A stretch of 64,000 bases of DNA from Mytilus edulis (lineage: Eukaryota), in assembly GCF_963676685.1 (NCBI RefSeq), contig NC_092348.1, positions 55,118,001 through 55,182,000 of the forward strand, given 5' to 3'. Shown one piece after another: positions 18,583 to 45,629 of the stretch. Positions within the stretch are counted from its first letter, which is position 1; the number at the start of each line of letters is the position of its first letter. The position numbers were made by a program, and so were the translations under genes. The notes below the pieces were generated by a model. That model ran no database searches. It was not told the DNA's origin and saw only the letters and a program-made list of their open reading frames with translations.

Positions 18583-19042
18583 ATAATGCACAGGATATTT
18601 TTTTCATAATTTGCTTTAACATATAGAATAGATGACAACCATTTTTTCTCTTTAAGTGATTCCAAACAGTAATCTCTTAAAAGAAAACATTAAGAAAAGT
18701 ACTAGAGAAATTTTTTTTTTGAAAATAAGACCCTTGCAAACAACCAAAAAGCATGCTTTTAACACAATGCACTGTTCAATGTTAAACATCCCATGAATAA
18801 GTAATTTTATTTTTTGTTTCCATTCCAATATTTTGCATGGTTATATGACTTACAGACAAACAGAAAATACTTGTTTTAAAAAAAAATCAATTAAGCATAT
18901 GATTATTATTGCAAGTATTTAAAGACACATTCTTTGCAATATTTTTTTTTATGTACCTAGACACACATGGATATCTCAAGGTGCAGCATGGACAGTCAAG
19001 TAAATCTCAACTATACTCTGGATGAAACTTGTTTAACCAACT

Positions 19043-20242
19043 TTAATACTACCTGCAGATATGCTCCAGAACTAACCCTACTTCATACTACTTACAGATC
19101 TGCTCCAGAATTATTCCTGCTTCATACTACCTGCAGATATACTCTGGAATTAACCCTGCTTAATACTACCTGCAGATATGCTCCATAATTAACCCTACTT
19201 CATACTACCTGCAGATATGCTCCAGAATTAACCCTACTTCATACTACCTGCAGATATACTCTGGAATTAACCCTGCTTAATACTACCTGCAGATATGCTC
19301 CATAATTAACCCTACTTCATACTACCTGCAGATATGCTCCAGAATTAACCCTACTTCATACTACCTGCAGATATACTCTGGAATTAACCCTGCTTAATAC
19401 TACCTGCAGATATGCTCCAGAATTAACCCTACTTCATACTACCTGCAGATATGCTCCAGAATTAACCCTACTTCATACTACCTGCAGATATACTCTGGAA
19501 TTAACCCTGCTTAATACTACCTGCAGATATGCTCCAGAATTAACCCTACTTCATACTACCTGCAGATATGCTCCAGAATTAACCCTACTTCATACTACCT
19601 GCAGATATGCTCCAGAATTAACCCTACTTCATACTACCTGCAGATATACTCTGGAATTAACCCTGCTTAATACTACCTGCAGATATGCTCCAGAATTAAC
19701 CCTACTTCATACTACCTGCAGATATACTCTGGAATTAACCCTGCTTAATACTACCTGCAGATATGCTCCATAATTAACCCTACTTCATACTACCTGCAGA
19801 TATGCTCCAGAATTAACCCTACTTCATACTACCTGCAGATATACTCTGGAATTAACCCTGCTTAATACTACCTGCAGATATGCTCCAGAATTAACCCTAC
19901 TTCATACTACCTGCAGATATGCTCCAGAATTAACCCTACTTCATACTACCTGCAGATATGCTCCAGAATTAACCCTACTTCATACTACCTGCAGATATAC
20001 TCTGGAATTAACCCTGCTTAATACTACCTGCAGATATGCTCCAGAATTAACCCTACTTCATACTACCTGCAGATATACTCTGGAATTAACCCTACTTCAT
20101 ACTACTTACAGATCTGCTCCAGAATTATTCCTGATTCATACTACCTGCAGATATACTCTGGAATTAACCCTGCTTAATACTACCTGCAGATACCATGCTC
20201 CATAATTAACCCTGCTTCATACTACCTGCAGATATGCTCCAG
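19043..20242. repeat. 39-bp minisatellite, about 31 units, two main variants
   Basis: Unit A tatgctccagaattaaccctacttcatactacctgcaga; unit B tatactctggaattaaccctgcttaatactacctgcaga. Confidence 0.95.
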
Positions 20243-40253: not shown

Positions 40254-40570
40254 AACAAGAGGCTCTCAAGAGCCTGAATCTCTCATCTGTAATTTTTGGC
40301 TTAAATCTTTCATCAATGATTATGTTTTGCTTTTCAATATATACTTAAATGAATGGCTTAAAACTTCCATTGAAATGTTCCTTGTATCTGTCATATTTTC
40401 TCCAAAATCATTTTACCCCTAGATTTTCTATTTTAGCCATCATTGACCATAATGGCTATGTTTCTTGACATACAAGAAAATTAAATACAAAATTTATACA
40501 AGATACTCTGAAACTCATTCAGCCCAAGTTTGGCTAACATTGACTCTGCTGAACATTTTTGCTGTTAACA
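40254..40570 (+). mobile_element. 5' fragment of a family B HINE-like element next to the LINE 3' end
   Basis: The sequence gaggctctcaagagcctgaatc and what follows aligns to 8374-8640. Confidence 0.65.
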
Positions 40571-40847
40571 AATGGTAGTTTAATATTGGTCTTCTTTTAA
40601 CTATAAAACTGATTATATTTCAGCATCATCTTAAGTAATACTGTTTATTTCAATAATTTTGCATTTGTGATCATTCATACCTGTAAGATACCTGTAAGAT
40701 CGTTGTGGGGCTCATATGGAAGGATCCTATCCTTTTTAGCCCACCCTATTTTGGTACACTTTCAAAACTGATACAATCATCAATCCTGCATGATTTGGTG
40801 CAATATTTCACACAATTAAAAAGTTATATAGAAAACTATTTGTGTCC

Positions 40848-43745
40848 TCATAAATTTCTTAACTGATACATGACTGACTCCCAATGACGGTCTATACTAA
40901 TTTTAAAGGCTTCCACAGTTTTTGATGAAATAACTTCAACTGGTAGGTTATTCCAATCATTAATAATTCGTTGTGAGAAATGTCTTAATCGAAAAGAAGT
41001 GTTACATCTAGGTTTTGCTAATTTCCAATTATGCCCACGGGTATTTGTACTGATGACAGTAAAAAATCTTTCGTAAGATATATCTTCGAATCCTTTTAAT
41101 ATTTTGAAAGCTTGTATCATATCACCTCTTCGCCTTCTGTGAGTTAGGGAAGGTAGTTTAAGTACTTTTAATCTGTCTTCATAGCTTAAATGTCGTATAT
41201 CAGGAATTAATTTAGTTGCTCTCATCTGCACTTTTTCTACAGCATTAATATCTTTCTTTAAATGCGGATACCATATTGTATTTCCATATTCCACGTGTGG
41301 TCGTACCAACGCAACGTATAGTCTTAAAAATGTATATTGATCTTTAAAGATAAAAGTTCGGTTAATTAGCCCAAGTATACTATTGGCTTTATTTATTTTA
41401 CTTGATATATGTTGAGAAAATTTAAGATCATTTTGAAAAATAATTCCAAGATCCTTTTCTTGTTCATCTTTAATGATATCAATATTGTTCATGGTATAAA
41501 CATTTTCAGGATTATTTCTTCCATAATGGATTTGTTTACATTTGTTCACATTAAATTTCATGTCCCATAACTTGGACCAATCGTAGAGGGCATCTAGATC
41601 ATTCTGTAAGACATCAGATTTAGAAGTAGGTGCATAAATTTTAGTATCGTCTGCGAAAATTTTTACTATAGACTCCACAACATCTGGTAAATCATTTATG
41701 AATATAATGAAAAGAACAGGTCCAAGTACACTGCCTTGGGGCACTCCACTAATTACATTTTGCCATTCAGATTTTTCCCCTTTCACCGCAACTTGTTGTC
41801 GACGTCCAGTTAAAAAGTCAGTTATCCATTCTAATATAGATCCACGAATACCGTATGAATACAGTTTCTTTAGTAATCTTTTATGTGGCACTTTATCGAA
41901 AGCTTTGGCAAAATCGAGATATAATGTGTCCCAGGATATATTATTATCCATATATAATGACCAGTCTTCCATGACATCAAGTAATTGTAATATACATGAT
42001 CTTCCAGAGCGAAAACCAAACTGTGAGTCTGATAACAAATTATTGGTTATTAAATGATCAATCATTTCCTTCCGTATAACCTTTTCCAAAGTTTTACAAA
42101 CAATTGAAGTTAGACTGACCGGTCTGTAATTTCCCGCATCCAGTTTACTACCTTTATTCTTAAAAAGTGGGGTAACTCTAGCATCTTTCCATTCTTTTGG
42201 AATTTTTCCAGTGTCAATGGACTTTTGAAATATCAAAGTCAAAGGTTTAGAAAATGTATTTGCCATACTCTTTACTATTAACGGATGAATATTATCTGGA
42301 CCCATAGACTTGCTTCCATTTAATAAAAGTAGATATTTTTCAACTGTATCTTGATTGATCCCAAAGTGGTCTAAAGATGATTCAAAATTTCTCTCTTCAA
42401 TATTAGGTATATTATTTGGATTTTCAGCAGTAAATACACTGGTAAAAAAGTCATTTAATACAGTCGCTTTTTCCTTGTCGGAAGTAGTTAAGTTCCCATT
42501 TGGTTTCATGAGGTTTGATACTGCTGATTTTGATTTCACTTTACTTTTGACATATGTCCAAAAATGTTTTGGCTCAGTTTTAGCTTTTGATGCCACCAAC
42601 TTCTCATATTCCTTTTTTGCTTTTCGAACGTTCTCATTTGCCCTGTTTCTAGCAACTTTATAAAAATCAAAATCTACTGCTCGTCTAGTAGCCAAGTATC
42701 TTGACCAGGCCTTTTGTTTGCGTTTTATATTGCTCAGACAATCAAATGTTAGCCATAATGGTTTAGGTTGACAACCCGGTTTAGGATTAGTTTTCGGTAT
42801 ATACGTTTCGACACATTTTTTATATTTTTCATAAAATATTTTCCACATCTTGCTTATGTCTTTATCTTCAAAAGAACTATCCCAATCAAAATTGCTAAAG
42901 TCTTCAGAAAATTTTTCGAAGTCACATTTGGAATATTTATATTTCGATTTACCAGTTTCATATTCATTGAAAGAGTACAAAAAGTCAAATGTAATGGTAG
43001 CATGATCACTAAGTCCCAGTGGAGCATCAATATTAATATTGTCAATATTGCTTTCATCTTTTGTAATAACTAAATCTAGAGTTCTACACATCTGATTTTC
43101 CCTAAATCTTGTAGGTTTATCTATATGTTGATATAGAAAATTGTCGCGTAAAGCTTCAATAAAAGTATGTTCGTAATGGTCCTCAGAGTGAGGCGTAGTC
43201 CAAAAGTTCCAATCAATATCACGCATATTAAAGTCTCCCGTTATTAAAATATTGTTATACAATCGAGCTGCTTCATTCAAAAGTCCAATAATATTTAAAC
43301 ATGAGTTTTGATTTGATGGGCTTCTGTATATTGAGCCTATCAATACAGTCTTATTGTCTTTTACCCAATTACACCATGAGGCATCATCATAAAGCGAATT
43401 CATATATTCATTTGGTGAGACACAGAAATTACTTTTTGCATAAATAATAACTCCCCGTCCTGTATTTTTACTCAGATAAGCTATATAGCCTTCAATGTTA
43501 AATAATGGAGAAATGCAATCTATATCAATATTTGTTTTTGGCAAAACTTCTGTTATAAAAATAAAATCTGGTTTCACGACCTGTATTTGTGCTTCAAGTT
43601 CATCAATTTTATTACGTAATTGATCAGCATTGGTGTACATACACTTTACTTTGTTTACAATTAAAGGGTTAATATTTCGATCTAAATCATCAATATTATT
43701 TTGCCTGTTATTTTCTGTACTTTCGGAAGTACTATCACTTATCAC
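40848..43745 (-). CDS. LINE ORF2p: apurinic-like endonuclease and reverse transcriptase, uninterrupted (reading frame is open up to 44075)
   Basis: APE motifs YTNA..L.NK, FITE, IYRSP, GDFN, SDH. RT motifs NYRPVSLTS, QFGFR, YLDFAKAFDKVPH, GVPQGSVLGP, FADD, KDLG. Confidence 0.97.
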   Translation of the reverse strand: MISDSTSESTENNRQNNIDDLDRNINPLIVNKVKCMYTNADQLRNKIDELEAQIQVVKPDFIFITEVLPKTNIDIDCISPLFNIEGYIAYLSKNTGRGVIIYAKSNFCVSPNEYMNSLYDDASWCNWVKDNKTVLIGSIYRSPSNQNSCLNIIGLLNEAARLYNNILITGDFNMRDIDWNFWTTPHSEDHYEHTFIEALRDNFLYQHIDKPTRFRENQMCRTLDLVITKDESNIDNINIDAPLGLSDHATITFDFLYSFNEYETGKSKYKYSKCDFEKFSEDFSNFDWDSSFEDKDISKMWKIFYEKYKKCVETYIPKTNPKPGCQPKPLWLTFDCLSNIKRKQKAWSRYLATRRAVDFDFYKVARNRANENVRKAKKEYEKLVASKAKTEPKHFWTYVKSKVKSKSAVSNLMKPNGNLTTSDKEKATVLNDFFTSVFTAENPNNIPNIEERNFESSLDHFGINQDTVEKYLLLLNGSKSMGPDNIHPLIVKSMANTFSKPLTLIFQKSIDTGKIPKEWKDARVTPLFKNKGSKLDAGNYRPVSLTSIVCKTLEKVIRKEMIDHLITNNLLSDSQFGFRSGRSCILQLLDVMEDWSLYMDNNISWDTLYLDFAKAFDKVPHKRLLKKLYSYGIRGSILEWITDFLTGRRQQVAVKGEKSEWQNVISGVPQGSVLGPVLFIIFINDLPDVVESIVKIFADDTKIYAPTSKSDVLQNDLDALYDWSKLWDMKFNVNKCKQIHYGRNNPENVYTMNNIDIIKDEQEKDLGIIFQNDLKFSQHISSKINKANSILGLINRTFIFKDQYTFLRLYVALVRPHVEYGNTIWYPHLKKDINAVEKVQMRATKLIPDIRHLSYEDRLKVLKLPSLTHRRRRGDMIQAFKILKGFEDISYERFFTVISTNTRGHNWKLAKPRCNTSFRLRHFSQRIINDWNNLPVEVISSKTVEAFKISIDRHWESVMYQLRNL

Positions 43746-44049
43746 ACTACCATCATTGCTTATATAATCAGATTCACTTGCATTGTCATTTTCTGCATTA
43801 TCAAAGTTATTAAAAAATGCATTATCTTGCGTACTATCTTTAGCACTCTCAGATGTACTGTATCTTATTTCACCACCCTTTTCGCATATATCATCAGATT
43901 CACTTGCTGAATCAACATTTGATGTACTTGCATTGTCATTTTCTGCATTATCAAAGTTATTAAAAAAATTAACTGTAACATTTGAACTGTAACAAAAACC
44001 AACTGGAATTAACGTATTTACATGTTGTTTGATCTTTTCTATAGAAAGT

Positions 44050-44940
44050 CTACGGTCGAAAATTGGCAGTCTGACCTAAACCGCCACTTTCAACACTACT
44101 AGCTGTATTTGTCATACTAGACTGACCAGAAATGTCTTTTCTTTCAATGATTTTCCCCCGGAAAATTACCAAGTTTGCATTGTTTGTTGCTTTTTTCTTC
44201 CTCTCTAGCTCTTTTCTCAGCTCAGTGTTAATATCTCTCTCTTCTTTTGTCAAGTCAGGGGTAATATAACTATTGTTCCATTTATGTACAGTATACCCAT
44301 CACTGTTTTTCCTTCTTAACAATTTAGAGTTCCCTAGAACTTTATGCTTATTTACAACGGAGCCAACAGTTACTTTCATCAGTCTTGGTTTACTCTCATT
44401 TGGTTTACCCAATCTTATAAATGATTTAATTTCAACTTCATCACTCTGAACAGTGTGCAATATATCTTTTAATGAAATTTCATCATCTCTTTTCTTATTA
44501 TCAGTACTACAATCTGGTTCTGGGACATTGTGAATTATTAAGTTACATTTTCTTTCTTCTCTGTCCCTAAACGACTCAAAGGCTCTTTCAACTCTTTGGT
44601 CAATTTTAACATCCATGCTGGATTCAACTACTTTCAATTTAGTATCAAGTTCTTCAAAAAGTACCCTTTGTCTCTCAATGTGTAACCCTAACTCATTTAA
44701 TTTTGGTAATACGCGGACACATCCATCACAGTTAAATGGCAAATTAGGGGTCGACTCGGTTTTCAGTAACTCATATAATTTTGCTGAAACGTGGCTACAC
44801 TCTATGCAGAACCAATATCGGCATATATTACAGTTCATACATTTTTGATTTTTCTTAAATGTTTCTTCACATTGGGCACAAGATTTGTTGTTAATTGAGG
44901 TCGGCATGGTGCCTGTCTTTGGAGTTGCTGTTTTACTCAT
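44050..44940 (-). CDS. LINE ORF1p: PHD-type zinc finger, coiled coil and RRM-like domain (296 aa)
   Basis: Cys pattern CAQC...CNIC...FCIEC...CDGC, followed by RKCNLIIHNVPE, RLGK, PRLMKV and ITPDLTKEER motifs typical of CR1/L2 ORF1. Confidence 0.9.
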   Translation of the reverse strand: MSKTATPKTGTMPTSINNKSCAQCEETFKKNQKCMNCNICRYWFCIECSHVSAKLYELLKTESTPNLPFNCDGCVRVLPKLNELGLHIERQRVLFEELDTKLKVVESSMDVKIDQRVERAFESFRDREERKCNLIIHNVPEPDCSTDNKKRDDEISLKDILHTVQSDEVEIKSFIRLGKPNESKPRLMKVTVGSVVNKHKVLGNSKLLRRKNSDGYTVHKWNNSYITPDLTKEERDINTELRKELERKKKATNNANLVIFRGKIIERKDISGQSSMTNTASSVESGGLGQTANFRP

Positions 44941-45629
44941 TATGTTTTTTTCTGAATGAAATGTTAGTTAAAAAGATATGTCAATGTTGTGTTGAAGCTT
45001 TCATGGAGAAAATGTTAATAGGGACACCAAATTTATGCAGGATTGATTCAGATTTTTAAAAAAAATTAGGGGCACCAAAAAAAAACCTTTTGCTGTCTTC
45101 GCCGGAACCGGAAGTTTATAATATAGAAGAACATTAAACAGGCTATTATTTGAACTTGGAATTATTTTTAATTATGGAATTTGCTTGAAATTATAAACAG
45201 GTACTGTTTATTTTTATCTAGTATGTTTTTAAGGGCCCTACATTATCTGTGCCAGTGGGCTCTTAATCGATGTCATTTGATATAAAGTCGGCTTACTGAA
45301 CATTGGGTTCTAAGTTCAATATCCCTAATGGCACATTAGAAAATATGTTATTTTTAAAAGGATAATCATGTTTTTTTATTATTTATACAGTAGTGCATCT
45401 ACGCGTTCATTTACTGGGATCTGTTCAGAACTGTAAATATTAAATAAAAATTGTACGTAAAGGTCGAAAATATTACTATATATTTGAGATATTAAAGAAA
45501 ATATAGTAACTGTGATTCATATGAAAATGAATCTGTGCACTGTTGACATAGAATTACAAATATAGTATACGTTGACAGTATTATTCATTGAACACAAAGA
45601 ATTAATATGAAAATAAGCATTTAGAATTT

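Follow-up and report, generated by a model that had tools for sequence, protein, structure and literature searches.

A predicted PA-X-type +1 frameshift signal at the ORF1/ORF2 junction of a CR1-type LINE in Mytilus edulis and its relatives

Programmed +1 frameshifting on a UUU_C motif is known from two groups of viruses. In influenza A virus, PA-X arises from a P-site slip on UUU_C with CGN preferred as the next codon, at an efficiency of about 1%; the change to UUC_AGA abolishes the shift, and a UCC codon in the E site stimulates it without being required (PMC3498833). Amalgaviruses use a UUU_CGN +1 shift to make an ORF1+2 polymerase fusion (PMC5052127). Among retroelements, a frameshift has been described in HeT-A gag (PMC5009743), and ORF2 of Zorro3 is AUG-dependent (PMC1965478). 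The mechanism by which ORF2 of LINEs is translated has long been in question, with reinitiation as the usual answer, and a +1 slip would provide a precise alternative for a widespread clade. The accessible text of a survey of 448 elements (PMC4120745) mentions neither "frameshift" nor "overlap". Our literature search, which covered mainly the main text of open-access papers, found no report of a PA-X-type UUU_C signal in LINEs, and older frameshift proposals may exist. The junction described below would be a known type of recoding signal placed in elements for which that search found no report.

We analyzed a 64,000-nucleotide stretch of the Mytilus edulis genome (hereafter the window; NC_092348.1, positions 55,118,001 to 55,182,000). 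Its minus strand carries a full-length, ~4.44 kb CR1-type LINE (40677..45115) that is young and intact and whose ends are common to copies on C1 and C14 with >99% identity. The 5' UTR (44941..45115) has a CG-rich stretch at its start, and two other copies, L189 and L191, start at 45114-45128. ORF1 (44050..44940) encodes 296 aa, comprising a PHD finger (E 3e-9), a long helix that is likely a coiled coil, an RRM, a CTD, and a disordered tail ending ANFRP*. The structure model of ORF1 had a pLDDT of 85, with residues 275-296 below 50, and its best match by structure comparison was human L1 ORF1p. This is the composition of a type II ORF1 with an additional N-terminal PHD (types from PMC4120745). 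ORF2 contains endonuclease (APE, hereafter EN) and reverse transcriptase (RT) domains (40848..43658) matching Pfam Exo_endo_phos, Exo_endo_phos_2, and RVT_1 above cut-off, with no Pfam match to RNase H in the window ORF2, as in the CR1/L2 group (Jockey superfamily). LINEs of this group have a 3' end formed by a stem-loop and a short tandem repeat without poly(A). Both parts were found here: a stem-loop (40705..40745) with the arms GGGCT and AGCCC, identical by eye in L094, L095, L143, and L144, and a tail with two units of 11 nt (40677..40700), also present in copies. The choice of CR1 over L2 as a label is our assumption from sequence motifs, and the APE-RT comparison tree contained unnamed elements only. 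No target-site duplication was evident at the window copy, and no protease domain was found in it. Short high-copy repeats flank the element on both sides (45136-45184 and 40501-40543), seen as piles of loose-ended RNA reads. Elsewhere in the window, the 1-kb bin 19001-20000 has a strong GC skew (-0.46) and is probably a simple repeat.

ORF1 runs on the minus strand from an ATG at 44940 to a TAG at 44052-44050 and ends GCC AAT TTT CGA CCG TAG. The ORF2 frame is +1 relative to ORF1 and open from 44075 to 40848, or 1075 aa from stop to stop, with a TAG at 44078-44076 as its upstream bound and a 26-nt overlap with ORF1. The original prediction had given the same ORF1 end, phase, overlap, and upstream stop, and all of its coordinates were right. 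The predicted slip site, UUU_CGA (44056..44061), lies two codons 5' of the ORF1 stop. Downstream of it, the ORF2 frame contains an Asn/Ser/Asp-rich linker of about 140 codons without stop or AUG (43641..44058), which includes a 42-nt duplication (43776..43967; units at 43967-43926 and 43817-43776) whose offset of 150 nt keeps the frame. A GTG at 43745 is codon 111 of the frame. As had been claimed, no AUG occurs in the extension before the EN domain: the first in-frame ATG is codon 146 (43640), within KCMYTNAD and 410 nt 3' of the ORF1 stop. Between the Phe and the EN motif (141 codons), the ORF2 frame has 0 stops versus 11 and 32 in the other frames, and a stop-free stretch of this length has a chance of about 1e-6 at this base composition. 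The interval from the ORF1 stop to the EN Met also contains 15 out-of-frame AUGs, which would trap a scanning subunit, and no in-frame AUG overlaps or adjoins the ORF1 stop as in SART1-like UAAUG coupling.

Taken with the comparisons below, we consider it quite probable that a programmed +1 slip at UUU_C gives rise to a rare 1,363-aa ORF1-linker-EN-RT fusion (294 + 1069 residues), in agreement with the approximately 1360 aa originally predicted. By analogy with PA-X, most ribosomes would read UUU CGA CCG UAG and release the 296-aa ORF1p, and the fusion would result when the P-site tRNA-Phe slips from UUU to UUC with a CGN codon waiting in the A site. The product would contain, in order, the PHD, coiled coil, RRM, CTD, a flexible linker of ~160 residues, EN, and RT, and its junction tryptic peptide would be DISGQSSMTNTASSVESGGLGQTANFDR. 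Such a fusion could enter ORF1p trimers via the coiled coil, and in a Gag-Pol-like manner the joined trimers could bring a few RT molecules to their own RNA.

Several additional features of the junction were considered and rejected. A 3' stimulatory structure was discarded because folds of the 80 nt after the site were weak and differed among elements; that no strong structure follows the site counts against the slip. The TGTAA of the window can pair with TTACA in the tail, but we saw no covariation by inspection, as TGTAAATA is constant despite differing tails in L094, L102, L143, and L144. A -2 slip or polymerase stuttering was set aside given U runs only 3-4 long and no indel in reads at a depth of 1-2.

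Searching the genome revealed 6 junction-spanning copies including that of the window, with 98-100% identity, plus degraded fragments. The original prediction named stops or frame changes in other family copies as grounds for abandoning it. None were present: TTTCGACCGTAG, the +1 phase, and a stop-free linker are kept in 6/6 copies, and the ORF2 frame is 1074-1086 aa long in four. The family is young, and therefore these copies prove only that the layout is not an accident of one copy. An old and heavily decayed fragment, L009, has TTTTTCACC at the position of the slip site. Among the other five copies, two have ACG>ATG changes in the linker, at codon 82 in both and at codon 21 in one, and both have lost the upstream TAG. 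Linker substitutions among copies (8 replacement and 3 silent) look neutral, which counts against the fusion.

These linker ATGs bear on whether ORF2 is instead expressed from a spliced RNA, via a TTTCAG or YAG acceptor, or from an internal promoter, with translation starting at the Met of CMYTNAD or at a linker Met. Such a start codon is available in some copies, and the ATG at linker codon 82 occurs in most RNA reads there (5/5 in X21 and 3/5 in X22), another point against the fusion. A gene model from Mya arenaria, P0045, also fuses an RFQ-ending ORF1 to ORF2. It was the one candidate for a natural single-ORF fusion among at most 8000 longer proteins considered, a limit that makes this result weak, and we rejected it as such because it is probably joined by predicted introns. 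However, most sites have TTTCG rather than TTTCAG, and the EN Met is missing in L096 and L102. At least half of the sampled words were contained in 20 runs from 14 studies, one recorded as RNA and most guessed to be RNA, and the element was thinly covered by three raw-read RNA runs and one contig run. No splice joints appeared in these four runs, and one contig spans 43848-44077 without a gap. With a depth of 1-2 at the junction, these data argue weakly against splicing and are silent on translation. Altogether, we regard splicing or an internal start as very improbable.

To place the junction in a broader context, we drew on 19 metagenome loci, 46 animal-derived loci in GTDB bins (21 inspected at the junction), and the Mytilus genome itself. 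A search of viral contigs returned no matches, nor did the ORF1 query against GTDB genomes. The animal LINE contigs in GTDB bins (L144, L145, L149, L162, L168, L169, L177, L181, and others) are most likely host contamination of bacterial and archaeal bins assigned to Sedimenticola, Thiodiazotropha, Poribacteria, and Nitrososphaeraceae. We scored 37 junctions, intended as one per family: 13 from metagenomes, 16 from GTDB, and 8 from the own genome. Excluded were L099 and L103 (L101 family), L157 and L161 (from the families of L152 and L155), L148 (broken), redundant own-genome copies, L151 and L184 (without ORF1), and L108, L110, L111, and L112 (the GPPW group described below). Within the latter, L110 seems to be in +1 phase but lacks TTT-C, and L108 is in phase 0; both phases probably result from indels.

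In-frame TTT-C within the last 25 codons of ORF1 was present in 9/14 +1 junctions, 0/17 -1 junctions, and 0/6 in-frame junctions (0/23 for the last two combined, Fisher p 1.6e-5), and all 10 TTTC strings in the +1 group were in the ORF1 frame. The codon following TTT was CGA (window, L098, and L100), CAA (L094), CGT (L095 and L106), CGC (L096), CGG (L102), or CCC (L144). A tenth UUU-class element, L149, reads TTT TAG G and also has in-frame ATGs 35-38 nt upstream. It is one of the 5/14 +1 junctions without TTT-C, together with L145, L155, L093, and L136, which have other ends; these five count against the slip. Codon choice at the site differed from that in pooled ORF1s: Phe was TTT in 10/10 cases against a background of 30/48 (p about 0.009), and the following Arg was CGN in 7/7 against 56/198 (p 1.5e-4). 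The site thus shows the marks of the PA-X type: a zero-frame UUU, a next codon that begins with C and is preferably CGN, an open +1 frame, and conserved synonymous positions. The E-site codon is AAT in the window and TCC in 1/10 DNA sites, and L106 has exactly UCC_UUU_CGU. The sequence-based checks proposed with the original prediction all came out in its favor, with two refinements. Across relatives of ~36% identity, Phe followed by a C-starting codon is kept at ORF1 ends, and in DNA it is tied to the +1 phase. The conserved core is UUU_C with CGN preferred, as CAA and CCC also occur, and the signal marks one of several junction types in CR1-like elements.

The slip site lies 19 and 13 codons before the ORF1 stop in L098 and L106, respectively, implying that the signal is independent of the stop. 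For L098 and L100, which do not reach the EN domain, the +1 phase was taken from a long open frame; L106 is broken, and in L144 a second shift occurs where EN begins. Seven elements have EN on the contig with no intervening break. In 7/7 of them, 23-281 open codons of the +1 frame connect the site with the EN motif, and 5/7 have no Met in between. Repeat offsets in the +1 linkers were multiples of 3 in 16/16 cases, although these counts are not independent. The open linkers of seven elements and their frame-keeping repeats fit frameshifting or reinitiation at the ORF1 stop and argue against a start at EN. Hence, the linker is probably translated. In the EN tree, UUU-class elements fell into four separate groups with poorly resolved deep branches, which establishes neither a single origin nor repeated gain. 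The most distant EN matches of the own genome were PHD-EN-RT ORFs with their own Met and are thus uninformative on the junction. The own genome also holds many intact LINE ORFs (L054-L089), 1100-1300 aa long, that have a Met of their own as well as a hydrophobic N-terminus, (D/E)xExNPGP, and a PHD before EN; their NPGP motif resembles a 2A/StopGo sequence.

Other CR1-like elements join ORF1 and ORF2 differently. Some -1 junctions have slippery-type ORF1 ends, namely A_AAT_TTA then TAG (L177), T_TTT_TTA (L147), and TTT directly before TAA (L168). In L152, L157, L174, L186, L188, and L162, the two ORFs share one frame that a single stop interrupts. This stop is mostly TGA with a C after it (TGA CAA, TGA CTA, or TGA CTC), a readthrough-like context, and L162 has TAG GAC. 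In the own genome, L139 and L141 have ORF1 and the EN frame in register with one TAG between them (CAA TAG GTT in both copies). The divergent own-genome families L093/L119 and L092/L136 are in +1 phase and have in common GGG ATT CCT CC (G-I-P-P) rather than TTT-C near the ORF1 end, possibly a second +1 signal. A further set of families has GPPW tails (L090, L091, L025, L123, L105, L107-L112, and L135). Here the Trp codon provides a -1-frame start 31-43 nt before the ORF1 stop, namely ATG in 7/12 and otherwise CTG, TTG, or GTG. These junctions may represent backward reinitiation with non-AUG starts.

The same process deserves consideration at UUU_C junctions, where termination followed by reinitiation at a near-cognate +1-frame codon would produce ORF2 as a protein of its own, with its N-terminus much extended. 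Reinitiation is reported for SART1 and proposed for L1 (PMC5972666, PMC5009743), it would also account for an open linker and in-frame duplications, and the GPPW sister families seem built for it. Near-cognate codons in the ORF2 frame lie ≤45 nt from the stop in 9/10 UUU-class elements, including a CTG 20 nt upstream in the window. However, these codons differ in identity and position, and L102 has none. Reinitiation also leaves unexplained why TTT-C is in the ORF1 frame, why TTT and CGN are the codons chosen, and why the motif is restricted to +1 elements. For these reasons we judge reinitiation unlikely at UUU_C junctions and continue to favor the +1 slip.

We next considered ORF1 proteins, for which many more relatives were available. 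A first search gave 44 homologues. Of the closest 39, 25 had a scorable tail, 17 ending in F[RHQP] and 8 without Phe. A profile search of 50%-identity representatives gave 23,262 matches, of which we took the best 150, with 141 having a complete conserved C-terminal block. Only 43/141 tails contained F[RHQ], which counts against the fusion; 14 had another Phe pair only and 84 had no Phe. The 66 residues found after a tail Phe in this set were R (33), Q (8), H (4), E (4), P (3), S (3), K (2), and others. R, H, or Q made up 45/66 versus 18.7% expected (p 2e-18, nominal and ignoring kinship). There was no enrichment of F-R in the protein bodies (49/700), and none of the other 19 residues had a comparable next-residue bias in tails. 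The residue before Phe was P, S, T, or A, which have NCN codons, in 26/44 versus 36% expected. What R, H, Q, and P have in common is codons beginning with C, and Lys, a conservative swap for Arg, is avoided, suggesting a constraint on nucleotides. When mapped onto an RRM-CTD core tree, the motif required 20 changes compared to a mean of 37 with shuffled labels and was present in 22 separate groups with a median identity of 36%. Being clustered yet widely spread, the motif appears old and inherited, which also means that nominal p-values are too small and independence is overstated. Among proteins alone, a subgroup of close relatives (P0005, P0007, P0014, P0020, P0021, P0024, and P0029) ends in PVQPV, PVLTA, or PVMTV instead of F-R. 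Another protein, P0016, appears to run from ORF1 into a linker-like GFFLQIN..., matching the +1 reading of the LFPPK end of P0023.

The tail might instead be conserved as a protein motif of ORF1p, such as a binding site or degron, with ORF2 expressed in an unrelated way. Its frequent position at the very C-terminus, with 0-1 residues after it in 20/43 tails, is compatible with that idea. Yet a protein motif would allow TTC, AGR, and Lys, which were seen in 0/10, 0/7, and 2/66 cases, respectively, and would not track the phase of ORF2. We give this explanation scarcely any credence, and a slip on UUU_C remains our preferred account of the tail.

A second conserved sequence lies behind the ORF1 stop. 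In the window, TGTAAATA (44015..44022, 27 nt 3' of the stop) matches on the sense strand the Pumilio-binding consensus UGUA(A/C/U)AUA (PMC8595405). TGTA[ACT]ATA occurred within 100 nt 3' of the ORF1 stop in 18/37 elements versus 0.72 expected from shuffles, with 11 occurrences in 80 kb of remaining element sequence and 3/37 on the reverse strand. We picked the pattern after seeing five of the elements; 13/32 others carry it too. By class, it was present in 7/10 UUU-class, 3/4 other +1, 7/17 -1, and 1/6 in-frame junctions. Because it accompanies all junction types, it favors neither frameshifting nor reinitiation, although its spacing, often 16-19 nt, is set by the stop and not by the slip site, which is a point for reinitiation. 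The window and L102 have 15 identical bases here in different reading frames, implying constraint on the RNA or DNA rather than the protein. GTAAATA also matches a forkhead DNA site, as an internal start of the RNA would have it, but the variant TGTACATA fits Pumilio and not forkhead. A Pumilio-type UGUAHAUA just after a LINE ORF1 stop is new here. The UGUAAAUA element is a likely Pumilio-binding site that could modulate how well the RNA is translated or how stable it is, with this role being the weakest step of the proposed mechanism; ACAAAAUA-type sequences would be its mutant control form.

The layout of the junction, its open and AUG-free linker, and the joint conservation of in-frame TTT-C with the +1 phase were all directly observed. 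From these, we lean slightly toward a wider conclusion: that a large and old branch of animal CR1-type LINEs makes its RT through a +1 ORF1-ORF2 fusion on the UUU_C signal of PA-X and amalgaviruses, and that sister lineages swap in -1 slips, stop readthrough, or reinitiation, many of them keeping a Pumilio site behind the ORF1 stop. If true, LINEs would use a strategy like the Gag-Pol of retroviruses, and a host RNA-binding protein would be stationed where the switch occurs. The PA-X-type signal would extend to chromosomal elements, a non-viral use left open by the 2012 paper, and dozens of natural variants (CGN, CAN, CCN, and stop distance) of a poorly understood +1 slip would become available. 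A covalent fusion would offer a simple route to both cis-preference and RT stoichiometry. It would also mean that ORF2 annotations beginning at the first Met or GTG miss the ORF1 moiety and the linker.

Ty1 and Ty3 are LTR elements that slip on other sites, CUU_AGG_C and GCG_AGU_U, and cut their fusion with a protease, a domain not found in the window LINE. Like these two, the window element would make its RT by a +1 shift that joins it to the structural protein (PMC5911963). Dictyostelium TRE5-A and TRE3-A are, like the window element, APE-type non-LTR elements, and their ORF2 is stated to need a frameshift; they differ in the -1 direction, in belonging to another clade, and in that the accessible text names no UUU_C signal (PMC5911963). 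SART1 and human L1 share a bicistronic LINE RNA with a rare ORF2 product, and L1 ORF1p has the same coiled coil-RRM-CTD fold, but there a separate ORF2 begins at an AUG near the stop (UAAUG in SART1, after a 63-nt spacer in L1), whereas the window element is AUG-free for 140 codons. In domain content, CR1 subgroup 5 and L2 subgroup 6 of Metcalfe and Casane 2014 are similar, having an N-terminal PHD on an L1-like ORF1 and an APE-RT ORF2 (PMC4120745). The likeness to PA-X and the amalgaviruses lies in the signal itself: an in-frame UUU with a C-starting codon, mostly CGN, a +1 direction, and no obvious 3' structure (PMC3498833, PMC5052127). In contrast to those viruses, the signal here, known from sequence, belongs to a chromosomal LINE, usually sits 1-2 codons before the ORF1 stop, allows CAN and CCN, and has a Pumilio-type element behind it.
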